Origin: a virus
Direction: 5' to 3' (one strand)
IMG/VR virus record: IMGVR_UViG_3300043400_000014
Span: 1 to 53,128 of that record
Length of the DNA: 53,128 nt
Shown: piece after piece, positions 1-52,946 of the stretch
Position numbering within the stretch: position 1 is the stretch's first letter
Layout of the letters: every line of letters starts with the position of its first letter
Notes under the pieces: model-generated
What the model was told of the DNA's origin: nothing
The model's input: the letters and a program-made list of their open reading frames with translations, nothing else
Database searches by the model: none
Position numbers and translations under genes: made by a program

Positions 1-216
1 AAGTGATTGAAATCATCTGGAAATCTTAACTTCCCTATCTTTCTTAACTTTAAAAGGGGGGGTAGTAAATTTAGATATACACGGGGCAATATAAAGTCAG
101 GTAAGTAAGTTAAGTAAGTTAAGATTGCCCTTTGGGCTCAAACACTTAGCCGTCTTAACTTAGCAATTCGAAACCCCGCTAAGTTAAGACGTTAAGATAA
201 GAAATCACAACAAGAT
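1..216. repeat. Right-hand part of 269-bp repeat copy A (copy A = 52949..53001 + 1..216 across the circular junction); CGTCTTAAC/TCTTAAC motif array, G7 tract at 56..62
   Basis: 1..216 aligns gap-free to 26114..26329 with one mismatch (128 C vs 26241 T). Confidence 0.95.
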
Positions 217-458
217 TATCCGTAGTCTTTTCCCGTGAGCCAACCATCACGCACCCAATCGAACCGTACTCTGCTGTTCATAACATAGTCTCTCCACCAT
301 GAAGCCAGGTCCATGTCGCAGACTTTTCTATGAAGTATTCCCATAACTTTTGGAAATCGGTCAAAGTAAGATTTTCTCAAAGCCTTGAACTTTGAATTCG
401 ACAACAACCTGCGAACTTCTGCTGGCGGGATCGCAAGCATCTTTTCAACTTCCGTCAT
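216..458 (-). CDS. hypothetical protein (80 aa), last gene of the early block
   Basis: ORF track 216..461. Codon at 461 is GTG. ATG at 458 shares one base with the upstream TGA (TGATG). The stop codon abuts the repeat boundary. Confidence 0.6.
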   Translation of the reverse strand: MTEVEKMLAIPPAEVRRLLSNSKFKALRKSYFDRFPKVMGILHRKVCDMDLASWWRDYVMNSRVRFDWVRDGWLTGKDYG

Positions 459-649
459 CACTTACACCTTCCACACTTTACGCGACCGACCGGGGCTTGT
501 GCCTCCAGGATCGCCAGCAGCCATATAATAACCCAAATACCGGCGGTGAGTGCCGTCAGTATAAGATGCAGCGCGTGATTGGGCTGTTTCACGGCAACCG
601 TTGTCAGTTCCCCACATTTCGAACAAGTTCTCAATTCATGTTTAATCAT
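458..649 (-). CDS. small membrane zinc-ribbon protein (CxxC, hydrophobic helix, CxxC; LITAF-like layout)
   Basis: MIKHELRTCSKCGE..LILTALTAGIWVIIWLLAIL..VKCGRCK. Start moved to ATG 649 (GAGG 9 nt upstream). The longest ORF (to 709) would overlap the upstream gene by 68 nt. Confidence 0.5.
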   Translation of the reverse strand: MIKHELRTCSKCGELTTVAVKQPNHALHLILTALTAGIWVIIWLLAILEAQAPVGRVKCGRCK

Positions 650-3044: not shown

Positions 3045-3048
3045 CGTC

Positions 3049-3116
3049 GTTCTCCATTTCTAATCCCTCAATCGGGTATAACTACAACTTAAAGGACAAC
3101 CGGGGATAAGTCAAGA
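3049..3116 (-). repeat. 68-bp promoter/leader cassette, copy 1 (pairs with 18790..18857)
   Basis: 67 of 68 bases identical to 18790..18857 (mismatch 3072 T vs 18813 C). Confidence 0.95.
3086..3114 (-). promoter_or_regulatory. sigma70-like promoter, -35 TTGACT (3109..3114), 17-nt spacer, -10 TAAGTT (3086..3091)
   Basis: Minus strand reads TTGACTtatccccggttgtccttTAAGTT, followed by the GAAATGGAGAAC leader. Confidence 0.6.
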
Positions 3117-3138
3117 ACTTTTTTTACGGTTCGGCAAA

Positions 3139-3996
3139 TTAAATTGGTCTGGGCGGCGCTTTTTCTCCTTTCCATTTTGAACTTTTCCAATCGTTCATCA
3201 ATTTCACACCGTCTGGACCGCACTTTTTAGCCAAATCGGTGATGTTTAACCACTCCCTTGAACCAGTGGTATAAACGCTTGAATCTTCGCTCATTTCATA
3301 AAACCAATCGTGAGTAGAACATGCGTCCCATAAAGTCGCCAACGGATTAATAGCGCCTTCTTGTTGAGGTTCCGTTATGTTGATATCCGCTGCAGCACGG
3401 GGCGGTTGCTGCTTCTCCTCCCTGGCGACCGCCCCACCCCCAAGCCTCAAATATCGATAGCATTTTTGAACGTACAGGGCTTGAGCCTGAGCGTCACTCA
3501 AAGCGTTGTGAGCAATTTCGGGCTTAACGGCTTCCACTTCAGGAGCCATAAATTTCATAGTTCGAACATCCAACACGTTGTAAAACTTCCAAGGGATTTC
3601 AAATCCACACCGCCGGTAAGCGTTTTCCAAAATAGGGATATCGAAACCCGCGCCGTTAGACCAGACTTTCAAATATTTCCAATCCGTAGGAAGTCGGTGA
3701 AAACGCCGACCGAATTCCTCGATTTTCTTCAACGCTTGACTAAGCAACTGCGGTTCTCGCCCAACAAGACCGGCGCGGGCGTTATCGTTTTGAGTCATCC
3801 ACCACATAATTGTACTGGCGTCAATCCGCAAACCGGCGTTGATACAAGCCTGAAGATCAACATGGATCAAAATACCTAAACTTTCGTCAATAGAATTGAA
3901 TTCGGGATTAAAAGGTTGGATACCAATCGACAAAATAGCAGCGTCACTTGCCGTGCTCATTGTTTCCAAATCAATCATTAAATGATTGTTGCTCAT
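3139..3996 (-). CDS. DnaQ-like DEDDh 3'-5' exonuclease
   Basis: N-terminal MIDLETMS (Exo I), central NGAGFD, and HNALSDAQAQA (H-x4-D, Exo III). Confidence 0.8.
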   Translation of the reverse strand: MSNNHLMIDLETMSTASDAAILSIGIQPFNPEFNSIDESLGILIHVDLQACINAGLRIDASTIMWWMTQNDNARAGLVGREPQLLSQALKKIEEFGRRFHRLPTDWKYLKVWSNGAGFDIPILENAYRRCGFEIPWKFYNVLDVRTMKFMAPEVEAVKPEIAHNALSDAQAQALYVQKCYRYLRLGGGAVAREEKQQPPRAAADINITEPQQEGAINPLATLWDACSTHDWFYEMSEDSSVYTTGSREWLNITDLAKKCGPDGVKLMNDWKSSKWKGEKAPPRPI

Positions 3997-8363: not shown

Positions 8364-10376
8364 TTACATTGACTCGCCCCAACTTGGGCCCATTTCAACG
8401 TCAACCTTCATTGGTACGCTAAGTTGAACGACGTTTTCCATTATTTCAGCCCCCCGTCGCGCATCTTCCGGCGTCATTGAACCGTCAATTTCATCGTGAA
8501 CCTGAAGCTGAACATACAAGCCTTCATCGTCCATAGCCACAAGAGCCATTTTGGTTTGGTCTGCGGAACCGCCTTGAATTCTGCGATTAAAAGCCTTGTG
8601 TAACCAGTCAAAAGTCCCATCGTCTTTTTTGGGAAACCGACACCGGCGACCTGACAAAGTTTCGATATAACCTTGTTTTTCTGCTGTATCCTGCATATAT
8701 TGCGCCATTCGACGGACGAATGGAACCCGTTTATCAAACGTATCAGTAAGAGTTTGACCCTCTTTTCCAGCCACTTCCCAAAATCGGACCTGATAGCCGG
8801 CTTCACGTCCAGCGTTTGCCTTAGCAGCGCATTCCTCGCGCGTTTCAAAATCCCTAGACTTTCGCTGGCGACCTTGACCCCATTGAAGTCTCCAGGCCGT
8901 CGGCAAACCCAAATCGCGGCAAAGTTTAGCGCCGCCCATACCGTAAGATAGACCCAGGAATATGTTTTTGGCCGGTTTGCGTTTAATCCCTGCCATATCG
9001 GCCATCATTTGATGAAAGTCCATCGTTGGATCGTCCCGGTAACGTCTTGCCGCTTCCAACGCGCTTTCATAAGCCGCTTGTCCAATTGCTTTGGGACCGG
9101 ATTCAATCGCAGAATGAACGGCTTGTCTTGGTTCCTGCTGGCTGTAGTCGAGTGCTGCCCATTGACAACCGTCTTCAACGAAATCGGGAACATAAATCGA
9201 ACGCCACATCGGTCCGATTTCCTCATCTCGTGCAGGTTGGTTTTGAAAATTGAAATTGGCTGAACTTAGCCGCCCAAAAGCAGCGCCTTCTGTGTCGCCG
9301 CTGCCGTCATCTTTTTGCCGCCGGAGTTGGTTAAAGGTGCAGTGTGCCCGACCGTTTGTAAGATGATGCTTAACGCCGTCCACAAACGTGGATCGCAACG
9401 TGCTCATCTTTTTGGCCCGTCGTAAATGATCCGCAACTGGATGATCTATGCTGTCCAGGATCGCGCCGGTGACGCTGTCTTTCCCGGTCTTTGTTTTGGG
9501 CAGTTCAATCCCAATCTCGCGTAATACTCTGGCAACAACATTAGTATTGGTGATGTCGTGAAAACCCAAACGGTGACCCGTCAGGACTTGATTGGCTGCG
9601 TCGATAGCTAGCTGTTGTTGTTCTTTCGACCAGCGTTCAACTTGATCCAACCGATCTTGAGAAACGGCGACGCCCCGGCGACGCATTTTTACCAAAACGG
9701 GTAACACGCGACTTTCTAAATTGTAAACGCCCCACAAGTCTTGAGCCTCAATTTCGCGCTCTTGTCGCCGGAGAATAGCTAAGGGCAACCTGGCGTCTTG
9801 TTCCCCATACGGTCCAACGTGTTTAGCCGGAAGCGCCCAAATACCGCTCTTGGCGGTTTTATCCTTGTAACCGTAAGCTGAAAGCGCCTCTCTTAATAAG
9901 GTTTCGTCCTTCCCGGTTATCGACCAGCGTTCACTGATTGCTTCCATGCTGTAATTAAAATGCAACTCGTTGATTAATGGATCGGCAACTTGAATATCCC
10001 GAAACCATTTAACATTTGGAAAAACGATTTTTTCTTCAGCCAGAAAATCCAAATCATAACCGAGATTAGCCCCGCACAATATTCCATCAAATCGGGCAGC
10101 GCAATCACGAACATAATTCAAAACGGCTTCCGGGTCCATATTTCCCCCGCCGCCGTGACGGATTGGGAGATAAAAACTAGGACCATCTTCAATCGCAAAA
10201 CTGATACCAACAATATAAGCCCCCCGCCGAACGCCTGGACCTAGTTTGGTTAAAAGTTCATCCCGCGTTTCACAATCAATTCCAACGCGACCTGAACCCC
10301 AAGTGGTTGGAAGGTCCGATATTCGGGGGGCAATCCAACCACTATCGGGTTCAAAAAGCGGTAGTTGTGAATACAC
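8364..10376 (-). CDS. polA: family A DNA polymerase with 3'-5' exonuclease domain
   Basis: Exo I GIDCET; motif A LDYSQQEPR; motif B RKPAKNIFLGLSYGMG; motif C QVHDEI. GTG start with GAGGT 8 nt upstream. Confidence 0.95.
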   Translation of the reverse strand: MYSQLPLFEPDSGWIAPRISDLPTTWGSGRVGIDCETRDELLTKLGPGVRRGAYIVGISFAIEDGPSFYLPIRHGGGGNMDPEAVLNYVRDCAARFDGILCGANLGYDLDFLAEEKIVFPNVKWFRDIQVADPLINELHFNYSMEAISERWSITGKDETLLREALSAYGYKDKTAKSGIWALPAKHVGPYGEQDARLPLAILRRQEREIEAQDLWGVYNLESRVLPVLVKMRRRGVAVSQDRLDQVERWSKEQQQLAIDAANQVLTGHRLGFHDITNTNVVARVLREIGIELPKTKTGKDSVTGAILDSIDHPVADHLRRAKKMSTLRSTFVDGVKHHLTNGRAHCTFNQLRRQKDDGSGDTEGAAFGRLSSANFNFQNQPARDEEIGPMWRSIYVPDFVEDGCQWAALDYSQQEPRQAVHSAIESGPKAIGQAAYESALEAARRYRDDPTMDFHQMMADMAGIKRKPAKNIFLGLSYGMGGAKLCRDLGLPTAWRLQWGQGRQRKSRDFETREECAAKANAGREAGYQVRFWEVAGKEGQTLTDTFDKRVPFVRRMAQYMQDTAEKQGYIETLSGRRCRFPKKDDGTFDWLHKAFNRRIQGGSADQTKMALVAMDDEGLYVQLQVHDEIDGSMTPEDARRGAEIMENVVQLSVPMKVDVEMGPSWGESM

Positions 10377-10653
10377 GTTGCAATACCTCTAAACGGTTGT
10401 CAAAATCTTTATCTTTATCGCACAGTTCGCAAATCTTCCGGTAGGCGTGTCTCATTGTGGTGCGGTCGCGACCGAAAACACGCCCTAACTCACTCCAACT
10501 AATGTCGGGAATGTTGCTGTAACACATATAGACGGCGACTTGTCGAGCATGAGCAATATCGCGCGAGGATCGGGTGGATGCCATAAGTTGATACCGGGTA
10601 ACCCCCAACTCTTTTTGTATAAAGTCCAGGATGTTTTCAATCTCCGGTTTCAT
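10351..10653 (-). CDS. stand-alone DnaA domain IV (DnaA C-terminal DNA-binding domain) protein
   Basis: TRSSRDIAHARQVAVYMC..SWSELGRVFGRDRTTMRHAYRKI aligns to the E. coli DnaA segment [39 protein letters not shown]. No AAA+ domain is present. Confidence 0.8.
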   Translation of the reverse strand: MKPEIENILDFIQKELGVTRYQLMASTRSSRDIAHARQVAVYMCYSNIPDISWSELGRVFGRDRTTMRHAYRKICELCDKDKDFDNRLEVLQRVFTTTAF

Positions 10654-11038
10654 CAATCCACGCCTCCAAATCTTCGATAATCTTTTCAAGGTCTTCGCGA
10701 ATTTTCCAACCATCAATCCGTTTAGTCAAATCGGCTTCAACCAAATTGAGATTAGCGTACGTAACGTAGCTGTAAAGTTTTGAACCTGAGCGCCCACTTC
10801 GCCAACCAGCTGGAACTTCAGAGGTAACGCGAACCTCGCCAAAGTGAACAGCAATCAGCTTTTTGATATAGCTTAAAGCTTTTTCAAGGTCTTTTTTACC
10901 GCCCTTATTGCGCCAGCGTCCGATATACTTGGTTGCGTTGCCTTCCAAGTATCCCAATCCGGTTTCAGCTACCCAATCCCAATGACCGTATTGGGATTGG
11001 TAATGGTCGCCGCCGACCTGTTCAACAAAAGTTCGCAT
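10637..11038 (-). CDS. DUF3310 (SaV-like) family protein
   Basis: GGDHYQ..GNATKYIGRW..KDLEKALSYIKKLI signature recalled from DUF3310 phage proteins. Confidence 0.6.
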   Translation of the reverse strand: MRTFVEQVGGDHYQSQYGHWDWVAETGLGYLEGNATKYIGRWRNKGGKKDLEKALSYIKKLIAVHFGEVRVTSEVPAGWRSGRSGSKLYSYVTYANLNLVEADLTKRIDGWKIREDLEKIIEDLEAWIDETGD

Positions 11039-12637: not shown

Positions 12638-13651
12638 TCAATACCCCCGCCCCGGAACGTACTTTGCTCTTGGGCGACCTTCCTCATTCAACACGCGAAG
12701 ATATTTGTCTGTTTCGCATAAACAGTTTTGAATATCGCTCAGTTCAATTTTGGGAACCCAAGGCGCTCTATAGCGGTCCTGCGTTTCCCAAATATATCGC
12801 ATTTCATGAAGTCCCTGCTCTTGGGACAAGTTAAAGTCAAGTGGGCGACCTGCCAAGCGGTTAAGTCCGCGACGCGAACCTGGACCGAGCGCTGCCCATG
12901 TGTTGATGTCTGGAGCGTTTCGGAGATAGCGGGTATGTCGAAGGTCAACGACAACCTGATACGCCATGAACGGTCCCCAGCCGATATAATGTTTGTCCTG
13001 CAACATCCTCCAAATTGTTTGCATTTCCAATTGATCGTGGAACATATTGCGCCAATGATGACGATCCTCCCAAAGACGTCCAATTACAATTTTGGCAATG
13101 TAACTCTGTTTACTCCAAGAATACCAAGGCTTGGTTTTATCGCTTTCGGCGCGGATCATGTACGCGCCGGTATAAATCTTTACGCCTTGCTCAGAAATCG
13201 CATTCAGAGCCTGACTAAGATAATCAGGCGTAAAATCAGGATGTGAAGGCCAACATGGTAACTCATCGCTATTCGACGCCTGTATGAGACGCTGAAGCGT
13301 GTCCGGCCAGTTGATCGTCCGGGCGATGGCAAGCATCAACCAAAGGTCAGGGTGATTCGCAAAGGGTTTTCGGATATTTTGATCAATCCACACCGTTACT
13401 CGGTCGAGTTCGCGGAATACGTTACAGAAGCGATACTGCTGTAAAATTTTACTCAACGTCAACGGTCCAAAACGGTCTTCATCCACAAACCGATTTGGAT
13501 CACATTCCTCCAGGTCCGCGTCTTTTGGAGCGTATGGCCAAGGATCGCCGGGATTTTCAAATCCGCCTTCCCTTATCCATTTGCGAATATAGATTGCATG
13601 ACGTTCATTTGCCCACTGCCAAAGAAGTTGAACGTTCAAATCACTTGACAT
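12638..13651 (-). CDS. aGPT-Pplase-like (alpha-glutamyl/putrescinyl thymine pyrophosphorylase family) protein
   Basis: QQYRFCNVFRELDRVTVWI signature recalled from the aGPT-Pplase family; overlaps the downstream P-loop kinase by 11 nt. Confidence 0.6.
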   Translation of the reverse strand: MSSDLNVQLLWQWANERHAIYIRKWIREGGFENPGDPWPYAPKDADLEECDPNRFVDEDRFGPLTLSKILQQYRFCNVFRELDRVTVWIDQNIRKPFANHPDLWLMLAIARTINWPDTLQRLIQASNSDELPCWPSHPDFTPDYLSQALNAISEQGVKIYTGAYMIRAESDKTKPWYSWSKQSYIAKIVIGRLWEDRHHWRNMFHDQLEMQTIWRMLQDKHYIGWGPFMAYQVVVDLRHTRYLRNAPDINTWAALGPGSRRGLNRLAGRPLDFNLSQEQGLHEMRYIWETQDRYRAPWVPKIELSDIQNCLCETDKYLRVLNEEGRPRAKYVPGRGY

Positions 13652-14243
13652 TGATAGCCTCCATCAAGTCAGCGTAAGCGGTTTCGTGATGCAGGGTTAT
13701 GGTGCGAATACCCGCACGATCGAACTTCGAACGCGTGGCTTCAATCGCCTTGATTTTGTCGCGCACCAAATCAACTTTGATATCTCGGGCTTCCCCCTTG
13801 GCTGCGATTTGTCGAGCAGTGATCCGCTCCAAACACAATTCCAACGGCGTGTCGAGATAAGCAATCAGAACCCCGCCCGGTCCAAACCGTTTAAAGAACT
13901 CCAACCATGATCCCGCGACCGTTGAAGCCAACACTCCCTCACAAATCACATGCTTGACCGGTTCCCCCGAAAGATTGTGCCAGCCGTCCGCGACCAAAAC
14001 CGCGTCTTGTTGAAGTTCGAACGATAGAATAGTGTCCATACCGCCGCAACCCTGTTTGTACGACCCGACGGCTAAAAAGCCTCCTGGTTTTCCCCAACCT
14101 TCAACAAATCTCTGCCGGTTCGGTTCTTTCTTTGTGGGCGACGTATATTGAACCAGATCAATCGGAGTTGCGTCGGGTCCAATCAACGACCGCGCAAGAT
14201 GAGTTTTTCCAGAACCGTTTGTTCCACGAATATTGATGATCAC
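13641..14243 (-). CDS. P-loop kinase, candidate 5-hmdU DNA kinase
   Basis: Walker A GTNGSGKT at residues 7-14. GTG start with GGAG 7 nt upstream. Flanked by two aGPT-Pplase-like genes. Confidence 0.5.
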   Translation of the reverse strand: MIINIRGTNGSGKTHLARSLIGPDATPIDLVQYTSPTKKEPNRQRFVEGWGKPGGFLAVGSYKQGCGGMDTILSFELQQDAVLVADGWHNLSGEPVKHVICEGVLASTVAGSWLEFFKRFGPGGVLIAYLDTPLELCLERITARQIAAKGEARDIKVDLVRDKIKAIEATRSKFDRAGIRTITLHHETAYADLMEAINVK

Positions 14244-14269
14244 ACTTGTTCTCCTTTTCTAATTCCTCA

Positions 14270-14298
14270 ACCCTATCCCCGCCGGGGATATCAGTCAA
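14270..14298 (-). promoter_or_regulatory. sigma70-like promoter, -35 TTGACT (14293..14298), 17 nt, -10 TAGGGT (14270..14275)
   Basis: The spacer contains the perfect palindrome ATCCCCG-C-CGGGGAT (14275..14289). Confidence 0.45.
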
Positions 14299-15101
14299 GC
14301 CTTAGTGTATTGGTAAGCCGCCAGAAGGTCTTGCGCATCCCATTTAACTAATTCCGCCAAATGGTCGCGCGTATCCAAACCTATCCAATAGTGCCCCCGG
14401 CGTGCTGATTTCCATTTGCACAAAACAGTTTCAATTTCCTGGATATTGACCAACCGGGCTGAGTTCCCACCATAACCTGGAGCAAGCATTCCGCCATAAG
14501 CGTCAAGCATTTCAACGACAACTTGCTGCGTATTGGAACCCAAACCCATAATGGCCGCAGCCATTTCCGCGCCTTCTTTTGGGTCTTTGTAAAGGGTGAT
14601 CACTTCATCTGGAAAATCGATCCCGACGCCCAAAACGCGCTCAAGCATATCTGCAGCCTTGAATGCGATCCAAGGACCGAATTGCGGCCAATTCATCAAC
14701 TGATTGACGTCGTTCAATGACCGGGCAACCTCCAGCGATATCACGGCTTCCTCGGGATGACGAAAACGAGAACTGAGTGCCCAGACGCTCTCAACGCACT
14801 TTTGACCGCGCCAGTGACGACGCTCATGCGCTCTGGGCCAACGACCGCCGATTGGAGCCGGTTTTTCGTTAATTGCGGCAGTTTCCAACATGTCCCAAAA
14901 ACGAGAGCCTGAGTATTGGCTGATGTACCAACTTGCGCCGACTGAATAGCAACACCAATAAGCAAGCAGAAAACGGCGCAACCTCGCGCCCTTCACGTTC
15001 CAATGAGTCAAACCTACGTACAGCGGGTCATGATCATTGGTTAAAATGAGCTGCCGACCCCATTCAACAGGATCATCAATTCTGGGTTGGTTATCCTTCA
15101 C
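14295..15101 (-). CDS. second, divergent aGPT-Pplase-like protein
   Basis: DPLYVGL..RRFLLAYWCCYSVGASWY..AHERRHWRG resembles other aGPT-Pplase clades (recall only). GTG start with GGGAGG 7 nt upstream and a GTGA overlap with the radical SAM gene. Confidence 0.45.
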   Translation of the reverse strand: MKDNQPRIDDPVEWGRQLILTNDHDPLYVGLTHWNVKGARLRRFLLAYWCCYSVGASWYISQYSGSRFWDMLETAAINEKPAPIGGRWPRAHERRHWRGQKCVESVWALSSRFRHPEEAVISLEVARSLNDVNQLMNWPQFGPWIAFKAADMLERVLGVGIDFPDEVITLYKDPKEGAEMAAAIMGLGSNTQQVVVEMLDAYGGMLAPGYGGNSARLVNIQEIETVLCKWKSARRGHYWIGLDTRDHLAELVKWDAQDLLAAYQYTKA

Positions 15102-18058: not shown

Positions 18059-18081
18059 GGGCGCGTTCAAGCGCCCTTTTT
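18059..18081 (+). terminator. GC hairpin GGGCGC-GTTCAA-GCGCCC followed by TTTTT on the plus strand, preceded by a G9 tract (18053..18061)
   Basis: Read directly. The loop contains the stop codon of 18067..18783. The U-tract lies on the antisense side relative to the genes. Confidence 0.5.
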
Positions 18082-18783
18082 AGTAATATGGGGAGCCGGT
18101 GACAGTACGCCAGCAGGGAGCACCAGATGGTAGCAATCCTCTGTGCCGCGCTTGGTTGTGCGGATACCGTAACCCTTAATTTTGTTCATGTCCCAATTCA
18201 ATCCGGACTTAACCGTGACTTCCTTCCAAGGCTTCGAACCGCCGCTCATAGCGCTGAGCAATTCAGCCATAGTCGCGCCCTGTGGTCGGTTGAGCATATC
18301 AACCAGCAAAGCCTGTTTGGAACCCTGACGGCAAGGGTAAATCTTGGAAAGAGGAGCCAAATTGATACCAGTTCCGCGACGCGAAGCAACAGGGGGCGTA
18401 TCTGTAAACTTCGCTGGAGCCGCCCGGTCGCGGGATTTGGTTTCGATCAGTTTGATAAGTGATTTTGGCGGGGCAGGGTTTTCCGCCATCATTTCCTGGG
18501 AAACCGTAGTAGCGTTCATCAAATCCTGAATATTCGCCCAAAGACGCTTCACACCTGCCTCCTTGGTCGCAAAGCGCGCGACCGGAGAAAGCCCAGTATC
18601 CAATTCCAACGCAGTTGCGTTATAAAGAGCGACAATTTGCGGGCCGGTCAAATCAACGTCACCCAAATCTTCAATCCCGGCGACATACAACAAATCTTCT
18701 TTTTCAGCTTTCGCCTTAGCGAACGCGCGATCAGCGAAGAATTCAACCTTCAGGTTGGCGATATCAATAAGCGTCACAGTCAT
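18067..18783 (-). CDS. DUF3489-type winged-helix protein
   Basis: C-terminal SKQALLVDMLNRPQGATMAELLSAM..GYGIRTTKRG..YHL resembles DUF3489. Start moved to ATG 18783 because the ATG at 18798 lies inside the conserved GAAATGGAG Shine-Dalgarno leader. Confidence 0.55.
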   Translation of the reverse strand: MTVTLIDIANLKVEFFADRAFAKAKAEKEDLLYVAGIEDLGDVDLTGPQIVALYNATALELDTGLSPVARFATKEAGVKRLWANIQDLMNATTVSQEMMAENPAPPKSLIKLIETKSRDRAAPAKFTDTPPVASRRGTGINLAPLSKIYPCRQGSKQALLVDMLNRPQGATMAELLSAMSGGSKPWKEVTVKSGLNWDMNKIKGYGIRTTKRGTEDCYHLVLPAGVLSPAPHITKKGA

Positions 18784-18789
18784 TTTAGT

Positions 18790-18857
18790 GTTCTCCATTT
18801 CTAATCCCTCAACCGGGTATAACTACAACTTAAAGGACAACCGGGGATAAGTCAAGA
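18790..18857 (-). repeat. 68-bp promoter/leader cassette, copy 2 (pairs with 3049..3116)
   Basis: 67 of 68 bases identical to 3049..3116. Confidence 0.95.
18827..18855 (-). promoter_or_regulatory. sigma70-like promoter, -35 TTGACT (18850..18855), 17 nt, -10 TAAGTT (18827..18832)
   Basis: Same sequence as the promoter at 3086..3114. Confidence 0.6.
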
Positions 18858-24143: not shown

Positions 24144-24168
24144 GTAATTCTCCTTTTCTGATTTTCAA

Positions 24169-24197
24169 AACTTATCCCCGTATCGATCAGTTGTCAA
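24169..24197 (-). promoter_or_regulatory. sigma70-like promoter, -35 TTGACA (24192..24197), 17 nt, -10 TAAGTT (24169..24174)
   Basis: Minus strand reads TTGACAactgatcgatacggggaTAAGTT, then a GAAAAGGAGAA leader. Confidence 0.55.
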
Positions 24198-24537: not shown

Positions 24538-25988
24538 AGCCAATCCTTAATCTTGTCTCCAAGAATTACAGAAGCAACTTCATTTTTCGCTTTCAACGCT
24601 TCAATCGCAACTTCATCGCGCGTACCAGGACAAATTAAATCAAAATAAGTCACGTTGCGAGTTTGTCCAATTCTATGGTTGCGATCTTCAGTCTGCTTGC
24701 GATCTAATAATTTGTAACTGTTGTTGTAATAAATAGTAGTGGTTGCTTCATTCAGGGTCAACCCCTCACTCATTTGGGAGTTTGCTACAAAGTCGGTTGC
24801 TCCCCCCTTCTTGAATTCATCTTTCGACCGGGCACGCTCATCGTCGCTCAACTTCCCATCATAACGCACCGGATTGCGGCCCATAGACCGCAAAACTTCC
24901 ATGATCATATCAATATCTTTTGTCCACATTGCCCATATAATCGTTTTTCCGTTCACATCCTCCATTAAATCGCGCAACAATTTCAAACGTGGATTGTTTT
25001 CCCGGTCAATTAATTCGGTCGGCTGTTTATCACCATCTACAGGAACATAACCGCATAGCACTTGTTGCATTCTCAACAATTTTGTCATAGCTAACGGGGC
25101 GGATATTAATTCTCCAGTATCGAGAAAGGCCATAAAGTCGCGCTCCAGATCGTCATATATCCGGCGCTGCGCAGCGGTCATGTCGTAATAGCGCTTTGAA
25201 TACAATTTAGGTGGAAGGTCCAAAACATTTTCTTTCAATACCCTGGAGGATATAAGTTTTACCGCAGCGGCAAGATGTTCCAGGTTTTGGTATCCGACCA
25301 ACTGATCATACTCTTTTTTAACTACAGCATTCCAACCCTTGTCCCAAACTCCGAAAAACGACTTGAAAGCGGTGTAACTGTCGATATCTAGTTCCCTTGC
25401 CCAGAAATTGGGATCGAGAAACTTGACCTGCGTGTACATGTCAAACGGTCCTTGAGTGATCGGAGTACCGCTGAGAATGCGCCGAAAGGGAGCATGACGC
25501 CCTCCAGCCAGTATTGACAAAGTCCGTTTAGCGGTAGGTGTTTTAATGCGATGGCTTTCATCAAGCACCAAAAGACATTGGCGCTTTTTCATCATCTGCC
25601 AAACGGCTTTCTTTCCCGCAACCGTCATCCACGCGTCATAACTGATCGCCAACAAAGGTAAACCGGAATACCCGGCTAATTCAGCCACCGCAGCTTGATG
25701 CCATTTTGAACCTGATGCGTCAGATTTATACGCAAACGCCTGCATTGGAATGTCTGGGCTCATATGCGTAGGCAATTCGTCGGTGACCCAATTCCGGTGA
25801 ACCCCGTTCGGTGCCACTATGATTGCAGCGTTTACCTTCTGCTCTGTCCAAAGATGTCCCAAGGTATCGATAGTGAGTTTGGTTTTCCCCGTGCCCTGCT
25901 CCCAAAAAGCGGCAAAGCTTTCCAGATCGCGTGACGCTTCCCAAGTTTCAAGTTGATGTGCAAACGGTTTTGTGTGTGGTCTATACAT
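24534..25988 (-). CDS. SNF2-family helicase
   Basis: FWEQGTGKT (motif I), LVLDESHRIK (DExH), C-terminal helicase domain with QTEDRNHRIGQ. Start moved to ATG 25988 because ATG 26000 lies in the GAAATGGAG leader. Confidence 0.9.
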   Translation of the reverse strand: MYRPHTKPFAHQLETWEASRDLESFAAFWEQGTGKTKLTIDTLGHLWTEQKVNAAIIVAPNGVHRNWVTDELPTHMSPDIPMQAFAYKSDASGSKWHQAAVAELAGYSGLPLLAISYDAWMTVAGKKAVWQMMKKRQCLLVLDESHRIKTPTAKRTLSILAGGRHAPFRRILSGTPITQGPFDMYTQVKFLDPNFWARELDIDSYTAFKSFFGVWDKGWNAVVKKEYDQLVGYQNLEHLAAAVKLISSRVLKENVLDLPPKLYSKRYYDMTAAQRRIYDDLERDFMAFLDTGELISAPLAMTKLLRMQQVLCGYVPVDGDKQPTELIDRENNPRLKLLRDLMEDVNGKTIIWAMWTKDIDMIMEVLRSMGRNPVRYDGKLSDDERARSKDEFKKGGATDFVANSQMSEGLTLNEATTTIYYNNSYKLLDRKQTEDRNHRIGQTRNVTYFDLICPGTRDEVAIEALKAKNEVASVILGDKIKDWL

Positions 25989-26060
25989 ATGGTACTCCAT
26001 TTCTTAAATCGGAATTTACGACGGGGTATCAATTTGGGAAAGCCCAGAGTAATGTTCCAT

Positions 26061-26329
26061 CGTCTTAACGTCTTAACTTAGCACTTCCACTTACCTTGTA
26101 AGTTAAGACGGCTAAGTGATTGAAATCATCTGGAAATCTTAACTTCCCTATCTTTCTTAACTTTAAAAGGGGGGGTAGTAAATTTAGATATACACGGGGC
26201 AATATAAAGTCAGGTAAGTAAGTTAAGTAAGTTAAGATTGTCCTTTGGGCTCAAACACTTAGCCGTCTTAACTTAGCAATTCGAAACCCCGCTAAGTTAA
26301 GACGTTAAGATAAGAAATCACAACAAGAT
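26061..26329. repeat. 269-bp repeat copy B: 10 CTTAAC hexamers (5 per orientation), five CGTCTTAAC 9-mers, two inverted repeats, AT-rich core, G7 tract (26169..26175)
   Basis: Direct alignment to 52949..53001+1..216 with 1 mismatch. IR1 is 26069..26080 with 26099..26110. IR2 is 26264..26277 with 26291..26304. Confidence 0.95.
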
Positions 26330-26330
26330 A

Positions 26331-26600
26331 CTAAGAGGGGGATTGAACGACGCGGGTGCGGCTTCGAACCGTTACCGGGTGATAATGTCTGCGTTTTGAT
26401 TCGATTGAGACGGAAAGGGATTGAATCATCTGTCGGCCAGATTGTACTGATTGAACGCAATTTTTAAATTCATGTTGAAGGTTTTCGATTTCCCGTTCGC
26501 GTTCCAAAACAACTTCTTTTGGTTTGCGTCCAGATAAAAATTGTTTTAACGCTTCAAACATTTCAACGTTCCGGCGTATGAATGAGGGCGGATATGACAT
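26331..26600 (-). CDS. hypothetical protein (89 aa), last gene of the late block
   Basis: ATG 26600 with GAGGTG upstream; the stop abuts the repeat boundary. Confidence 0.5.
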   Translation of the reverse strand: MSYPPSFIRRNVEMFEALKQFLSGRKPKEVVLEREREIENLQHEFKNCVQSVQSGRQMIQSLSVSIESKRRHYHPVTVRSRTRVVQSPS

Positions 26601-26784
26601 TTTTCACCTCTGTAGCAAGCACGCTCATCTCTTTCGCGTCTTTCAATCGGGCTTCATGAAGATTATCTTTGTCTTTTTCAGCCAGTCTCCACTGCTTAAC
26701 GACCCAGACAAGGGCCAAAAGGAGAGAAACTACAATAAATATATCAAGTCGCCCCTCCTCAAGGAACTTTGTCAAATCAGTCAT
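26563..26784 (-). CDS. small single-pass membrane protein (73 aa) distal to the spanins
   Basis: Hydrophobic segment IFIVVSLLLALVWVV; 8-nt overlap with the o-spanin. Confidence 0.55.
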   Translation of the reverse strand: MTDLTKFLEEGRLDIFIVVSLLLALVWVVKQWRLAEKDKDNLHEARLKDAKEMSVLATEVKNVISALIHTPER

Positions 26785-30913: not shown

Positions 30914-31831
30914 TTAACAGTCGTAAGGTCGGACGTCGATTTCACACATCCAGGGTGCGCCTTGACGACACATCCAAGCAGCGTTCTCGGTTAAAGCTGT
31001 ACTATAAAGTGTTTGTCCAAACTCGTCAAGGATTGGTTCTCCGGTTTCAGTCAACAACGGTAAACCTTCAGTTTCCCAATTTTCGCAAAATCCGCCGTAG
31101 TCTCCGCAAAAACCAAATATTTTTCCGGTTCTTTGAAAAGCTTGAGTAGATTGCGTTACGTCAATTCGTTCTTCATTTAAACCGCCCCAACCTTCTCCAA
31201 ATCCAAAAACGCGAGTTTCTCCAAAATGAAAAAGAAGTCGAATGCCCAAAGCAACCGGAAGAACGCGGGGGTAAAGTTGTAAGATTAAAAGTTCAGAATT
31301 AGTCAAATCGCGACCAGGAGTAGCAACAACGCGTCCTTGGCCGGAATAAAGCACAAAAGCACTATCCCCAAAAAATTCTTTTAAACATTCTTCTAAACTA
31401 ACAAGATCGAACTGTTGATTAAACTGGCGAAGTCGAACGCGAAGAAACGATCTGTATAAATTATCGTCTGTTATACATATTTCGGATAAACCATTCGAAC
31501 ATTCTGCCCAAGATACCGGTAACGTTTCGCAAAAACCAGCAACCGGTCTTACGTTAATCCCCTCTGGGCAATCAAACCCAAATACCGGGTTCACATTACA
31601 AACGCAATGACAACGAGGCCAACCAAGACGTTTTCCCAGCAGTGTGAGTTGATCGCCGGAAGCTGAATTAATATCAAACAAATCCGGCAAATTGCAAATC
31701 TGAACGTGATTAGTCGATATCGAACTTAGATAAGTTCGAAGTACGTGAAGTAATTTCGGACTTTCTCGATATTGGGTAAGAACCCGATCAAGTCTTTCAT
31801 CCGTCATTTCAACAACTGTTGGACAGTTCAT
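30914..31831 (-). CDS. baseplate protein (DUF2612-like)
   Basis: LTQYRESPKLLHVLRTYL N-terminus; position after the baseplate J gene. Confidence 0.5.
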   Translation of the reverse strand: MNCPTVVEMTDERLDRVLTQYRESPKLLHVLRTYLSSISTNHVQICNLPDLFDINSASGDQLTLLGKRLGWPRCHCVCNVNPVFGFDCPEGINVRPVAGFCETLPVSWAECSNGLSEICITDDNLYRSFLRVRLRQFNQQFDLVSLEECLKEFFGDSAFVLYSGQGRVVATPGRDLTNSELLILQLYPRVLPVALGIRLLFHFGETRVFGFGEGWGGLNEERIDVTQSTQAFQRTGKIFGFCGDYGGFCENWETEGLPLLTETGEPILDEFGQTLYSTALTENAAWMCRQGAPWMCEIDVRPYDC

Positions 31832-32712: not shown

Positions 32713-33083
32713 ATGTTTACCTCTTGTTCATATTCAGTAACGATGTCAATGTTGAAAGCGCTCAATCCACGAGTGGAATTATCAAACCGGACGCTGAATG
32801 AACTTATATCGGTTACGCCGTCCGTGTCTAGTATTTCGGCTTTCAAAACGCTCTCAGCCATAATCGGATCGTATTGATGACCAACAATATCCCGTATCCA
32901 AGGAACTCCAACTTGATTATCCAAAAACCATTCACCCTCGTACGTCATCAAGCGGACCCGAACATGTTGGCCGACGGCTTCTGCATTTTTCACTACAGCA
33001 AGAGAACCGAATTCATCCAGATAAAGGTCGGCTGGAGCAGAACCGTCACGCCGTAGGGCTAATCCAAATCGTTCAATAGTCAC
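32709..33083 (-). CDS. small baseplate wedge protein (Mu gp46 / gpW-like)
   Basis: QHVRVRLMTYEGEWFLDNQVGVPW motif; GTG start with a GTGA overlap. Confidence 0.5.
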   Translation of the reverse strand: MTIERFGLALRRDGSAPADLYLDEFGSLAVVKNAEAVGQHVRVRLMTYEGEWFLDNQVGVPWIRDIVGHQYDPIMAESVLKAEILDTDGVTDISSFSVRFDNSTRGLSAFNIDIVTEYEQEVNI

Positions 33084-33745
33084 AGCGCCATACTCCTCAA
33101 CTTCCCAGCAATTTCCGAATATTGGGCTTGTTTTTCGAGAGCGTGTCCAGTTCCCGCTGAAGAACCATAGTTGATTTGAAGCGTATCAGCAGCAAGTAAC
33201 TCAACAACTTGTGTGAGAAGGTCAAACCAATTTCCTTGCGCCCCTACAATTTTGAATTTTCCATCCTCGCTCATTTCAATTTTGAAATCGCCTGAAGCGC
33301 TTCGAATTTCCATATTTGAAGCATTAAAATTTGAAATAGGTTCACTGATCGGTTCCCCGCCGTCTAAAAAAGCTTCCATGTCGGATAAACTGAAACTCCG
33401 ACTATCGTTTTTGGAAGTGTACTCGCCGCCGGTATGGTATTCCTCACTGGAACGCATCTGCGGACGCAAAGTCACCTTATCTCCAGGTTTAATTGGAGAC
33501 GTGATTACAAAACCCCCCGCGCGAGTAAACCGCACCGGAACCTCTTCAAGTTGAGGCATGTCAATTGGTTCGCCGTTATGTTTGGGTTTATAATTCGGTT
33601 GGATCGACGCAGTTTGCGTTGTTGGGTCAAATGATACAACAGTTCCAGAAATCTCACCCCATTGGGTTTCGCGTTCAGCTTGGGCCTGGGTTGCCACGAC
33701 TTCCCGGCGCGAGTTGGTAGTTTTTCCTCTGTAACCAAGGCTCAT
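33080..33745 (-). CDS. baseplate central spike (gpV / gp138-N-like OB fold)
   Basis: GTVVSFDPTTQTASIQP..VPVRFTRAGGFVITSPIKPGDKVTL. Confidence 0.55.
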   Translation of the reverse strand: MSLGYRGKTTNSRREVVATQAQAERETQWGEISGTVVSFDPTTQTASIQPNYKPKHNGEPIDMPQLEEVPVRFTRAGGFVITSPIKPGDKVTLRPQMRSSEEYHTGGEYTSKNDSRSFSLSDMEAFLDGGEPISEPISNFNASNMEIRSASGDFKIEMSEDGKFKIVGAQGNWFDLLTQVVELLAADTLQINYGSSAGTGHALEKQAQYSEIAGKLRSMAL

Positions 33746-41226: not shown

Positions 41227-41994
41227 TTACGCGCCTTTTTTGTCGGCAATCATTTTCTTGAGTTTTTCAACACCAGTGTTGATATTCGGGTTCAAGCCCA
41301 AATCGCGGGCTTCTTTCAAAAGCGCCTCGCGGTCGCCGGTCTTGGCAGCTTCTTCAGCTTCCAAGATGGCGTTGAGCAGATCATCGTCCGAAATATCAGA
41401 CGGGAACGCAACACCCAAACCGGTAGCCTTTGATTCAAGAAGTTCGCGTTCGGTCGGGGGATTTGTATTTTCAACAGGCGTTACCGCTGTGTCCGAAACG
41501 ATCAAACCCTGCTCCAACCAAAGTTTGGCAGCATTACCTAAACGCCATTTGTCGAAAACGTTGGAAGCGATTTCGACTGTTGCGCCAGGTCGAATATCGG
41601 TTCCAACGTTTTCAACACCAGTGTTGATATTCGGGTTCAAGCCCAAATCGCGGGCTTCTTTCAAAAGCGCCTCGCGGTCGCCGGTCTTGGCAGCTTCTTC
41701 AGCTTCCAAGATGGCGTTGAGCAGATCATCGTCCGAAATATCAGACGGGAACGCAACACCCAAACCGGTAGCCTTTGATTCAAGAAGTTCGCGTTCGGTC
41801 GGGGGATTTGTATTTTCAACAGGCGTTACCGCTGTGTCCGAAACGATCAAACCCTGCTCCAACCAAAGTTTGGCAGCATTACCTAAACGCCATTTGTCGA
41901 AAACGTTGGAAGCGATTTCGACTGTTGCGCCAGGTCGAATATCGGTTCCACCAACATTCAAAATACCGGTATAATTGTTTGTCACTTTTGTCAT
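41227..41994 (-). CDS. capsid-module protein with a perfect 115-aa internal duplication; HeH/Rho-N-like C-terminal motif in each unit
   Basis: The unit GTDIRPGATVEIASNVFDKW...LLKEARDLGLNPNINTGVE occurs twice. Confidence 0.7.
   Translation of the reverse strand: MTKVTNNYTGILNVGGTDIRPGATVEIASNVFDKWRLGNAAKLWLEQGLIVSDTAVTPVENTNPPTERELLESKATGLGVAFPSDISDDDLLNAILEAEEAAKTGDREALLKEARDLGLNPNINTGVENVGTDIRPGATVEIASNVFDKWRLGNAAKLWLEQGLIVSDTAVTPVENTNPPTERELLESKATGLGVAFPSDISDDDLLNAILEAEEAAKTGDREALLKEARDLGLNPNINTGVEKLKKMIADKKGA
41264..41950. repeat. in-frame tandem duplication, period 345 bp
   Basis: 41264..41605 is identical base for base to 41609..41950 (342 of 342). Confidence 0.95.
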
Positions 41995-45691: not shown

Positions 45692-47036
45692 TCAGCTTTG
45701 CCTTGGGCTCAGGATTTTCCAAAGCGTTAACACTGACTTCGCTTGCCCGACGTTCCAGATCAAATTCTGGCAGTTGTTCGCCGTTCTTTTTAAGCAAGTC
45801 GCCAAGACCTGGATAAAAAGAGGATTCAATCAACTGGTTGCCTACAACCTCGCGCAATTCTTCTGGCATGAACAATCCAGTAGTGGTGAGAACGTTTGCC
45901 GTGTCCGCGTTCATCTTACCGATTTCAGCCAGTTCCTTTTCGCTCATCTGTTCCAAAGGAGCCCAAGTATAGAAAATTTCATCGGGCCGATTGCCCAAAG
46001 CCGACCGGATCAGCGCTTCATCCAACTTGTATAGGGCTGGACCGATTTCAAGAGCCTGGATAGACGCGATCCGGTCATAATAGTTTTTCATATCGTGTTC
46101 GCCGGTGGACGACAAACCGGAAGGTGATTGCCCAAGCAAACGGGTCAGCGGAATATCCGCCGCCCCGGATACCAGAATGAGGAATTGTTGTAACACATCC
46201 GGCAAACCAGTAAAGGCGATCTGCTTGCGGTCGTATTCTTCATCACTGTCAGTGATCAAAGCCTTTGTGACCGATTTGCCGATGTTGGCAAGCGTGAAGC
46301 GATCAATCAGCTTGGTGCGATACGCAGCGCTGCTCATGTGCTCCATAAGGTCTTGAATTTTGTACACATCTACATTGGCTTCGAAAACCAGCGACGCGAT
46401 ATTTGAAGCTGTGGCGTCGGCGTTTGTCACAGCAGACCAAACCGACTGTAATGAGCTATCGCCCCAACCGACGTTTGTGCTGACGTTCCAAGGATCGGGA
46501 TGAAGTTCACCAATTTGCAACACGATCCGAGACGGGTGAATATCAAGGAAGGTAAGACCGTTGCTAACTTGATAAGAAATAGGCCAACCGTAATTTTCTG
46601 CCGTCGGGTCTTGATTCAATTCGCCAGCGACAATTTCCCGACGGCTCATCACCGTGAGATATTTCAAGCCGCCCTTTTTGATGCTTTCCGGTTCCCAGGG
46701 TTTCGAAGCGTCGCCCCCGTCACCAATATACATAACCGCCCCGCCCCAAAGCCGGGCAAGGGTCTTACACCACAACATCTTCTGCTTCAAGCCCAAACGA
46801 CGTTCTTCAGCCTCAATCATTGTGATTTGAGATTGATCAGCTTGCCACTCACGCCATTTCCGCAAAGCGTCCATAGCTGGAATGTTGATAATCTTTTTCG
46901 CCAACCACGTGTTGCGATACGCATTAAGCAGTTGTTGGTCGCTGAGAAACGTGTGACCGTACGACAAAGACGCAGCTTTGTCGATGCTTGGATCACCCAT
47001 CCCTGTAATCAATGAACGCAAGCTGTCGTTATTCAT
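45681..47036 (-). CDS. portal protein (DUF1073-like)
   Basis: 451 aa; N-terminal LAKKIINIPAMDALRKWREW; precedes the MuF-like gene. Confidence 0.8.
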   Translation of the reverse strand: MNNDSLRSLITGMGDPSIDKAASLSYGHTFLSDQQLLNAYRNTWLAKKIINIPAMDALRKWREWQADQSQITMIEAEERRLGLKQKMLWCKTLARLWGGAVMYIGDGGDASKPWEPESIKKGGLKYLTVMSRREIVAGELNQDPTAENYGWPISYQVSNGLTFLDIHPSRIVLQIGELHPDPWNVSTNVGWGDSSLQSVWSAVTNADATASNIASLVFEANVDVYKIQDLMEHMSSAAYRTKLIDRFTLANIGKSVTKALITDSDEEYDRKQIAFTGLPDVLQQFLILVSGAADIPLTRLLGQSPSGLSSTGEHDMKNYYDRIASIQALEIGPALYKLDEALIRSALGNRPDEIFYTWAPLEQMSEKELAEIGKMNADTANVLTTTGLFMPEELREVVGNQLIESSFYPGLGDLLKKNGEQLPEFDLERRASEVSVNALENPEPKAKLNEV

Positions 47037-47494
47037 TTGTTTTCCCTGTTGACCAACAGCAGTGCTGTGTCAGTAACGTGGCCGAACCGATCAAAAACGC
47101 GCCGTCCGCACGCATGAAGGAACCCGGCGCTAAGTTCGTGACAAAACCAACTGTCGTCTTCGCGCCAGTCCCGGTCCGGCGATAAAGAGACGCCGAACGC
47201 CCCGCGCCAGTCGTATCCCTTGCCAACTTGCGCCTCTACCCAAGAGACGCCAGCCGCTTTATCAGGCACAACAAAAGGACGCATGCAGACAATATCCTGC
47301 CCCTGGATGGCTTCTGCCCACGGTTGTTTGACTACGCCATGCAACATTGTGGCTTGATAAACCGTTCCGTCCACGAGGATCATGGAATGACTTGCCCGCG
47401 CCCACTTAAACCGGGAAACAGGAAGCGCCCACCGGATCAACCATGAAACGGGGTTCCATGATCGCTTGGTGAAAACGATGGTGACGTTATTCAT
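47033..47494 (-). CDS. permuted papain-fold (YiiX/YaeF C92-like) peptidase/amidase (tentative)
   Basis: ASHSMILVDG (His first) then WFCHELSAGF (Cys second), the order seen in permuted NlpC/P60 enzymes. Confidence 0.45.
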   Translation of the reverse strand: MNNVTIVFTKRSWNPVSWLIRWALPVSRFKWARASHSMILVDGTVYQATMLHGVVKQPWAEAIQGQDIVCMRPFVVPDKAAGVSWVEAQVGKGYDWRGAFGVSLSPDRDWREDDSWFCHELSAGFLHACGRRVFDRFGHVTDTALLLVNRENK

Positions 47495-47868
47495 CACGCT
47501 GTCTCCGCAACATATCCAGCGGCAACCGGATCATCCACGTCGACAAGTTCAAGCCGTGTGCCGGGCAACTCCTGAACTAGAGGCGCGAGACGGAGGATGC
47601 CCTGCAGCGGCCCTGTCCCGAGCATCTGGTCAGCAATGACCCGACCATCATCACCGACATGAGTGTGAAGGCTGTCGTAATCAAGCCACCACAAGCCCGG
47701 TATTGTCTGATGTGCCTGCCAGATTGACGCGTCATAGGGCGCGGTGACATAATTTGGATCGGTGGACAGCCAGCGCAGACGCGACCATGTATTCAGCTGG
47801 TCCACCGTCAATTGTTTGAGTTGTTCGGCTGGAGGATTTGGAACACATACAAATTGAAGAATGCGCAT
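47494..47868 (-). CDS. hypothetical protein (124 aa)
   Basis: ATG start; coupled to the downstream gene (TGATG). Confidence 0.6.
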   Translation of the reverse strand: MRILQFVCVPNPPAEQLKQLTVDQLNTWSRLRWLSTDPNYVTAPYDASIWQAHQTIPGLWWLDYDSLHTHVGDDGRVIADQMLGTGPLQGILRLAPLVQELPGTRLELVDVDDPVAAGYVAETA

Positions 47869-47879
47869 GTGGTTTCTCC

Positions 47880-52917: not shown

Positions 52918-52946
52918 AATATAAGCCCAGAACGACTTCCGGGCAA
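52918..52946 (-). promoter_or_regulatory. sigma70-like promoter for the late block, -35 TTGCCC (52941..52946), 17 nt, -10 TATATT (52918..52923)
   Basis: Minus strand reads TTGCCCggaagtcgttctgggctTATATT, immediately downstream of repeat copy A. Confidence 0.5.

Follow-up and report, generated by a model that had tools for sequence, protein, structure and literature searches.

The two 269-bp repeats of this viral genome are best explained, with about even confidence, as a duplicated hub of promoter and operators, placed at the head of each gene block, that gene conversion keeps alike and to which a phage protein, probably the one carrying a DUF3489 domain, binds. Each copy would then be a control element at a module junction, one heading the packaging, structure and lysis block and the other the replication and nucleotide block, with one reading direction around the circle common to the two blocks. 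The upstream tandem triplet of sites would act as a host sigma70-type promoter firing into the block behind it, as homology to phage YuA suggests, and the remaining sites would be operators for a phage-encoded DNA-binding protein, most likely the DUF3489 winged-helix protein (18067-18798). With the same sites available in both copies, this binder would time or limit the transcription of both halves together, and it may also block read-through around the circle. That the promoter is active in this phage, which protein binds the sites and which way the regulation goes are proposals.

Genome layout and anatomy of the repeated unit

The window (the whole stretch of DNA analyzed, 53,128 nucleotides) holds a circular genome of 53,001 bp, with bases 1-127 identical to 53002-53128 (assembly overlap), and all plausible genes are on the minus strand. 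In minus-strand order, copy A is followed by terS (GP3_package), terL, portal, head, contractile tail and lysis genes, and then by copy B. After copy B come the genes for the SNF2 helicase, a Dda-like helicase, ribonucleotide reductase, the DUF3489 protein and thymidine-hypermodification homologs, then those for a protein with DnaA domain IV only, DNA polymerase I and a primase-helicase of the RepB-primase/D5-like type (Pfam), followed by small ORFs and copy A again. The features of the repeats and their surroundings are:

26061..26329, minus strand: junction element, copy B, flanked by the structural/lysis block, which ends with a stop at 26331, and by the SNF2 helicase start (26000/25988)
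52949-53001, minus strand: copy A, first part, upstream of terS (bases 53002-53128 are the overlap repeating 1-127)
1..216, minus strand: copy A, second part, up to the stop codon of the ORF (216..461) that is last in the early block
26264..26312, minus strand: Module I, first on the coding strand, an inverted pair CGTCTTAACTTAGC-N13-GCTAAGTTAAGACG with one extra site (copy A 151-199)
26242..26260, minus strand: conserved non-site block AAGTGTTTGAGCCCAAAGG (copy A 129-147)
26207..26237, minus strand: Module II, tandem 9-mers TCTTAACTT ACTTAACTT ACTTACCTG, then TGACTT (copy A 94-124)
26235-26207, minus strand: putative sigma70 promoter in Module II, directed towards lower coordinates, with -35 TTAACT at 26235-26230, a 17-nt spacer and -10 TGACTT at 26212-26207 (homology to YuA)
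26163..26210, no strand: AT-rich core of 48 bp with TATATT/GTATAT motifs and a G7/C7 tract at 26169-26175 (copy A 50-97)
26137..26162, minus strand: Module III, 9-mers in the opposite orientation (AGTTAAGAAAGATAGGGAAGTTAAGA), mirroring Module II (copy A 24-49)
26061..26110, minus strand: Module IV, an inverted pair CGTCTTAACTTA-N18-TAAGTTAAGACG with an overlapping extra site GTTAAGACG (copy A 52949-52998)
25995..26004, minus strand: AGAAATGGAG, a putative ribosome-binding/leader motif before the SNF2 helicase (sequence conservation)
52918..52946, minus strand: predicted unique proximal terS promoter directly after copy A, TTGCCC-N17-TATATT (promoter scan)
18067..18798, minus strand: DUF3489 two-domain protein with a winged-helix-like C-terminal domain, candidate binder of the 9-mers (Pfam, covariation, AF2 model)

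Sequence comparison bore out the preliminary description of two near-identical direct repeats, which are 269 bp each, differ only at repeat position 181 (C in A, T in B) and have start-to-start spacings of 26,113 and 26,888 bp. A recount of the sites returned the same figures as before, with 10 CTTAAC per copy (five on each strand), nine TCTTAAC and five CGTCTTAAC. Genome-wide, 18 of the 19 TCTTAAC and 20 of the 28 CTTAAC occurrences are inside the two copies. With up to one mismatch, TCTTAACTT has 37 matches in the genome against 11.4 ± 3.6 in shuffles, none of the 100 shuffles reaching 37. The GC content is 36% in the repeat and 49% in the genome. The placement of the repeats between an upstream stop codon and the SNF2 helicase or terS start also agrees with the earlier account, the stop codons of the upstream genes (216..461 and 26331..26600, minus strand) being 0-1 nt from the repeat ends and the next start codons (terS 52897/52891; SNF2 26000/25988) 51-72 bp beyond. 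The sequences flanking copies A and B are unique and unrelated to each other.

Read on the minus strand, a copy consists of an inverted pair, three tandem 9-mers, the AT-rich core, the mirror 9-mers and a second inverted pair. The two inverted repeats claimed previously were recovered (arms of 12 nt around an 18-nt spacer, and arms of 14 nt around a 13-nt spacer), as were the AT-rich core and the G7 tract at the positions listed. Inverted pairs equivalent to Module I occur in relatives, and 16 stretches of viral contigs match the Module III pattern, among them the two copies of each of three related contigs. The core has a GC content of 30-33% in the window and is conserved in close relatives; in high-GC relatives the stretch between the site arrays is GC-rich. 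Between genomes, the sites of five distant copies are 91-98% identical and the non-site positions 62-74% (Fisher p<=1e-4; for example 98% vs 74%, Fisher p about 1e-6), in alignments that the repeated sites themselves help to anchor. In the two closest relatives the difference between sites and spacers is not significant (p = 0.07-0.2).

The unit as a whole carries terminal inverted repeats of 20 nt that match perfectly (26063-26082 and 26291-26310) and is a near-palindrome, with a 64-nt arm pair of 78% complementarity and an RNA fold of the 269-nt unit of -97.6 kcal/mol (z = -11). Measured against mononucleotide shuffles, global palindromy is weak or absent in the relative Pam3, the helicase copy of YuA and the related locus L008. 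It is treated here as a by-product of the mirrored site arrays, and a cruciform or global hairpin mechanism was not adopted because the palindromy, strong in the window, is not conserved.

Conservation and concerted evolution of the two copies

Among cultured phages, the nearest relatives are Pseudanabaena phage Pam3 and the Rhizobium phages RHph_I65, I72 and TM26, in which TerL is about 69-70% and SNF2 about 68-73% identical. A search of related genomes for site arrays, as had been suggested, found the same duplicated element upstream of terS and of the SNF2 helicase gene in at least eight of them, including Pam3, RHph_I65 and IMG/VR contigs. The helicase-upstream and terS-upstream sequences form a 225-bp repeat of 91.6% identity in Pam3 and a 161-bp repeat of 80% identity in RHph_I65, and TCTTAAC is confined to the repeats in both phages. 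Four IMG/VR genomes have the same two-copy pattern with 82-91% identity between copies, and further fragments have single copies. On the strength of the unique flanks and of these relatives with the same two copies at the same places, the possibility that one copy is an assembly artefact is rejected.

The same two junctions are occupied in phages whose SNF2 is only 43-75% identical, with within-genome copies of 80-92% identity. In divergent genomes, each copy is matched best by its partner in the same genome, and in closely related genome pairs the orthologous copies match slightly better than those within a genome. This pattern is that of ancient paralogs under concerted evolution, the window representing a very recent homogenization by gene conversion. 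The near identity of copies A and B would be due to recent gene conversion between ancient paralogs, so that of the explanations first offered for it, gene conversion is retained and a recent duplication is not, the duplication being ancient.

The Pseudomonas phages YuA and Ab18 also carry a duplicated element, and only the replication module is common to them and the window. When every window gene was compared by tblastn with both phages, the replication/nucleotide module was matched; packaging, head and tail genes had no match in YuA at E<=1e-3, and the same search gave two weak matches in Ab18 (one tail and one lysis gene). Because YuA and Ab18 keep the element before their own terS while sharing only replication genes, it belongs with the early module.

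The Ab18 copies (84-388 and 31598-31294) are 86.5% identical and inverted relative to each other, and all genes of this phage are in the same direction. Its sites, of the ACCTAAGTCGC and CTCGAGT types, differ from the window motif. Because a single oriented promoter cannot serve both blocks in Ab18, the inversion argues against a one-way promoter cassette, and this independence of orientation favours a symmetric protein-binding hub or an origin. No other point weighs as heavily against a cassette of this simple, one-way kind.

Contigs with TerL about 60% identical have arrays of other 7-9-mers (ACTACGC, CTGGAGC, GTAATAAC, GCAAATAGT), which in most of these contigs are on both sides of a TATATA-rich center upstream of terS, and in three of them a NusG-like gene is found between the array and terS. 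Additionally, an SNF2 relative of 49% identity has TCTATCA sites upstream of the helicase. This widespread architecture with lineage-specific motifs fits a phage-encoded binder, and the NusG-like gene and terS behind the arrays of the sister clades suggest a transcription-control setting. The two-copy rule rests on three lineages, with the second copies of the other-motif sister clades left out. A scan of the genome collection gave mostly single chance matches, real arrays being present only in two contigs of one MAG, and no relatives integrated in isolate genomes or present as their plasmids were found. P106B, a TerL relative, was dropped as a comparator since it shares only TerL.

Promoter homology and candidate binding proteins

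Phage YuA, with an SNF2 43% identical to that of the window, has GGTAAGTAAGTTAAGTAAGTTAAG upstream of both the helicase (618-651) and terS (33157-33189). Its GenBank record (NC_010116) has promoters at 489-568 and 33014-33160, annotated with 'medium activity (1000 MU), clear -35/-10', which stem from a promoter-trap study. For one sigma70-like promoter of YuA, an ONT-cappable-seq study reports agreement with the promoter-trap result (PMC10914365). In an alignment of 16 sequences, Module II is in register with the YuA promoters P1 and P2 and with Yuavirus-like contigs. In the Yuavirus-like locus L220, the sites are CTTGACTT.

Similarly to the YuA promoters of gp02 (helicase) and gp50 (terS), the two copies of the window are at the heads of the replication and packaging blocks, and tandem CTTAnnTTA 9-mers followed by TTCGCCC, with a GGTAAGTAAGTTAAGTAAGTTAAG array nearby, are a further likeness to YuA. 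The two YuA copies share 34 bp at 97% identity, whereas the window duplicates the whole nearly palindromic 269 bp, and the AT-rich tract, which in the window is enclosed by the arrays, follows the mirrored array in YuA. The YuA record annotates the promoter fragments alone, not the site arrays or the duplication. The repeats are not mentioned in the literature on Pam3, the Rhizobium phages, P106B, HMSP1-Susan, Ab18 and the Mesyanzhinovviridae, and in the literature searched, which did not include the original YuA paper, the arrays, the two-copy rule, the concerted evolution and the link with DUF3489 are not described. In kind, the element is placed with phage control regions or iteron arrays.

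In copies A and B alike, Module II is on the minus (coding) strand and faces the downstream genes, and its homology suggests a host sigma70-type promoter firing into the downstream block. The putative hexamers (TTAACT-N17-TGACTT) are weak, with about 6/12 consensus matches. A consensus promoter scan found none inside the repeat and only the unique terS promoter outside copy A, a silence that carries little weight because the same scan misses the annotated YuA promoter. Among the three roles envisaged at the outset, a duplicated origin, a pac or terminase-binding region and a regulatory hub, the last has the most support, part of the repeat being homologous to YuA regions that are annotated as sigma70 promoters of experimentally shown activity. 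The terminator that had been included in this role did not hold up, as a scan of 25800-26700 found no classical intrinsic terminator. Against the hub reading, ten sites per copy are many for a simple operator, and the symmetric layout and AT-rich core suit an origin at least as well.

Other signals are found next to the repeats. A TTGCC-N17/18-TATAnT sequence, as in the predicted terS promoter, follows most of the A copies examined (L022, L023, L024, I65_A and Pam3_A), not c0353_A. The leader motif before the SNF2 helicase is conserved as GAGAAATGGAG in Pam3, I65, YuA and IMG/VR relatives, and the true start codon of this gene is likely the ATG at 25988. The genome also has a second repeated promoter, 99% identical, at 3086-3116 and 18827-18857, the -35 box of which, TCTTGACTT, differs from the 9-mer site by one base.

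Of the three proteins proposed earlier as binders, the one with the DUF3489 domain is weakly favoured, by covariation in one contrast, and the DnaA-domain-IV protein and TerS are disfavoured. The DUF3489 protein occurs in Pam3, RHph_I65 (two paralogs) and YuA, and its C-terminal domain is 54-80% identical across the captured relatives with the AAGTTAAG motif. A C-terminal motif reads KPWKEVTVKSGLNWDMNK-KGYGIRT in the window and KPWTEATVRSGFGWDM-KLKGYGVRS in Yuavirus-like relatives. The Ab18 homolog shares only 24% identity, and its recognition region is unlike that of the others; the Ab18 motif differs too. The protein is favoured because conservation of its recognition region goes with conservation of the AAGTTAAG motif, the region having diverged in Ab18, the single lineage contrast of a covariation test that covered three lineages and left out the DUF3489 gene of the TCTATCA lineage L033. 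The AlphaFold2 model is confident (pLDDT 85.9) and has an N-terminal domain and a C-terminal helix-helix-helix-hairpin domain; a Foldseek search of this model against the PDB returned nothing below E = 0.8, with weak winged-helix look-alikes only, and the PHROGs entry for the protein is of unknown function. On these sequence comparisons, it is the best current candidate for the binder of the 9-mers, weakly favoured.

The DnaA-domain-IV protein is absent from YuA and Ab18, and since YuA shares the motif, its lack there disfavours it as a binder. Several base-contact positions of E. coli DnaA are also changed in this protein. TerS is disfavoured since YuA and Ab18 keep the element with unrelated TerS and TerL, the window TerS belonging to GP3_package and those of YuA and Ab18 matching no Pfam family. 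Additionally, the primase-helicase is about equally diverged from YuA and Ab18 in every segment, and no region of it co-varies with the motif.

Alternative roles and significance

The main alternative, possible though doubtful, is that the repeats are a duplicated iteron-type origin, in which the 9-mers would be iterons for a phage initiator on both sides of an AT-rich unwinding core. The internal promoter would then provide transcriptional activation or an R-loop primer, and the copies would fire at roughly opposite points of the circle or form a bipartite ori. The hub and origin readings are not mutually exclusive. The inverted site arrays flanking the 48-bp AT-rich core with its G/C run, the encoded RepB-primase/D5-like primase-helicase and the seeming irrelevance of orientation, given the inverted Ab18 copies, are in line with an origin, as is the fact that the element travels with the replication module and not with the packaging module. 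However, a DnaA-box cluster is lacking, a search for such boxes giving 9 box-like matches vs 10.5 expected and none in the repeats, and the inter-array stretch of the high-GC relatives is GC-rich, not AT-rich. The candidate initiators also speak against it, with no region of the primase-helicase co-varying with the motif and the DnaA-domain-IV protein absent from YuA, and the strict position at the head of each block together with the homology to active promoters is more simply explained by transcription. GC skew has no sign change at either copy, the cumulative GC and AT skews only changing slope near both, a result that is uninformative because all genes are on one strand.

Comparable origins include the ori/crr of P4, bound by the alpha primase-helicase, oriF and oriG of T4 (promoter plus DUE) and the ori of SaPIs. 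Like P4, the window has two separated clusters of one short repeat and encodes a primase-helicase fusion; unlike P4, its clusters are 26 kb apart and not 4.5 kb, both of them head gene blocks, and no covariation with the motif is seen in the C-terminal part of the primase-helicase. Like the T4 origins, it has a putative promoter reading straight into an AT-rich stretch and several copies per genome; the flanking mirrored arrays of protein sites are found only here, and R-loop priming here would be conjecture. The precedent for two origins in one phage is SPP1, in which oriL and oriR each have direct repeats together with an AT-rich DUE and are both bound by gp38 (PMC6316719). Similarly to the window, SPP1 has two dispersed copies in one genome of roughly 45-55 kb, with repeated sites beside an AT-rich stretch and one copy intergenic among late genes (PMC6316719). 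The arrays are mirrored here, whereas direct repeats are beside the DUE in SPP1, and its gp38 initiator and DnaB-type helicase have no identified counterpart in the window.

An improbable extension unites the hub and the origin. DUF3489 protein on about ten sites per copy would couple the two copies, the complex serving as promoter switch and origin for both halves, and by recombining with each other the copies could divide the 53-kb circle into two of ~26 kb or, in phages of the Ab18 type, flip one half, giving a facultatively two-part or isomerizing chromosome.

A role at the RNA level, with the inverted pairs as stem-loops that terminate, stabilize or process the transcripts of the upstream block, or with the whole unit as a structured RNA, is also improbable. 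The stable fold of the unit and a 14-bp stem that begins about 25 nt past the stop codon of the upstream gene would suit it; against this, neither a U-tract nor a match to an intrinsic terminator was found, the whole window gave 0 matches in Rfam and tRNA scans, and the global palindromy is absent in the Pam3, YuA helicase and L008 copies. The stems consist of the conserved site itself, so covariation cannot be assessed.

The hexamers of P1 pac flank the cut site, and SPP1 has a pac of the pacL/pacC/pacR type. The layout of the window element recalls both, with short motifs flanking a central segment and one of the copies beside terS, and a pac/cos signal, in which TerS would bind the repeated sites and TerL cut in the core, could also account for copy A being directly upstream of terS and for the other-motif arrays upstream of terS in phages with TerL about 60% identical. 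Such a role is nevertheless very unlikely and the terminase-binding function suggested at first is disfavoured, since the element persists with unrelated TerS and TerL in YuA (with the same motif) and Ab18, without similarity of these proteins at E<=1e-3; YuA matches no structural gene of the window by tblastn, and the TerS families are not common to them. Unlike the pac sites of P1 and SPP1, the element is passed on together with the replication module and has a second copy, adjoining the helicase, 26 kb from terS, and in several sister clades a NusG-like gene is located between the array and terS.

Sites for chromosome organization or partition, at which a phage protein would bridge the copies or which would be centromere-like sites of a plasmid-prophage, are likewise highly improbable. 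A scan of 30 window proteins revealed no ParA/ParB domain, the literature regards YuA, which belongs to the family, as virulent, and the genome scan found no integrated or plasmid-borne relatives in isolate genomes; in their favour are the two many-site clusters almost opposite on the circle, sites in either orientation with variable spacing that suit a monomer-binding protein, and the dispersed sopC sites of N15 as a parallel. A MITE-like element or assembly artefact, to which the perfect terminal inverted repeats and near-identical copies might point, has a negligible probability and is effectively refuted by the comparative data, with no target-site duplications, unique flanks, no transposase seen and the same two junctions occupied across divergent phages (SNF2 43-75%) by copies that have diverged to 80-92%.

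If the promoter-plus-operator hub is correct, the repeats would represent a cis-regulatory cassette shared by Pam3-like myoviruses of cyanobacteria and rhizobia and by Yuavirus/Abidjanvirus siphoviruses of Pseudomonas, some of them under study for phage therapy. This cassette would travel with the replication module and be set before unrelated packaging modules, and its binder would give a function to the uncharacterized DUF3489 domain. It would also explain how two large gene blocks, with the genes on one strand, can be coordinated without an RNA polymerase of the phage's own, and it may offer a compact promoter-operator pair for phage engineering. Additionally, long direct repeats of this kind, inverted in Ab18, are a built-in source of deletions and inversions, which matters for the stability of these genomes and for their assembly.

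Assembly ends, repeated segments and a region missing from Pam3 and RHph_I65

The first 127 bp of the window (1-127) are repeated exactly at its end (53002-53128). This terminal overlap is located within copy A of the 269-bp repeat, and it shows that the assembly has been circularised, with a length of 53,001 bp. Away from copies A and B, the genome has a single exact TCTTAACTT at 2145-2153, on the coding strand of an ORF (1642-2235), with no other sites nearby.

The stretches 41264-41563 and 41609-41908 (300 bp each, 345 bp apart) are 100% identical and are both contained in a single minus-strand ORF of 255 aa (41227-41994), which has weak similarity to a protein encoded downstream of the capsid gene in Pseudanabaena phage Pam3 and Rhizobium phage RHph_I65; the pair may correspond to an in-frame duplication of a 115-aa domain, or else to an assembly problem. 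Additionally, the interval from terL to the portal gene includes about 3.6 kb (47033-50696) without a counterpart in Pam3 or RHph_I65. Among the four ORFs that lie here is one for a protein of 747 aa, which has an arabinofuranosidase-B-like catalytic domain and, internally, a repeat of 42 nt (49027-49068 and 49660-49701).

Putative regulators and a repeated consensus-like promoter

The small protein encoded at 10351-10716 is essentially DnaA domain IV alone, and its recognition helix reads GRDRTTMRHA, compared with GRDHTTVLHA in E. coli. Since the equivalents of R399, P423 and H434 are altered, the target of this protein, judged from its sequence, is probably something other than a DnaA box. 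Pseudomonas phages YuA and Ab18 lack it. For the DUF3489 family, which includes the candidate binder of the 9-mer sites, RHph_I65 has two adjacent paralogues (1848-2438 and 2542-3384), and in one of them the winged-helix domain is followed by a long insertion.

The DUF3489 gene of the window and a small ORF are each preceded by a 68-bp repeat (3049-3116 and 18790-18857, 99% identity; also 14249-14281 and 24148-24180), which contains a consensus-like predicted promoter, TCTTGACTT...N17...TAAGTT, and the leader AGAAATGGAG, a motif present five times across the genome. This repeat is similar to one in YuA, CTTTACTTCTTCGG-N6-CACTATA, for which the annotation gives a sigma70 promoter requiring a phage cofactor.

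In phages with related TerL, a NusG-like protein is encoded between the lineage-specific repeat array and terS, which suggests that their late operon is under antitermination control:

NusG-like genes in contigs with related TerL
L117, 1116-1754
L112, 1106-1699
L127, 521-1234

CTTAAC arrays were also found in two contigs (L237 and L259; 68-70% GC) of MAG CALMPI01, labelled Flavobacteriales, one of which encodes an SNF2 74% identical to that of the window; both have the appearance of phage contigs that ended up in an unrelated MAG during binning.

Inverted elements and possible DNA modification

The junction element, the duplicated putative control region heading both gene blocks, is present in Ab18 as two mutually inverted copies (84-388 and 31294-31598; 86.5% identity over 310 bp), despite all genes being oriented in one direction; recombination between them would invert half of the genome. 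The window also encodes, at 12638-15101, homologues of aGPT-Pplase1, aGPT-Pplase2 and adjoining genes of Pam3, suggesting that the phage DNA contains hypermodified thymidine, in which case the T-rich 9-mers would carry the modification in the virion.
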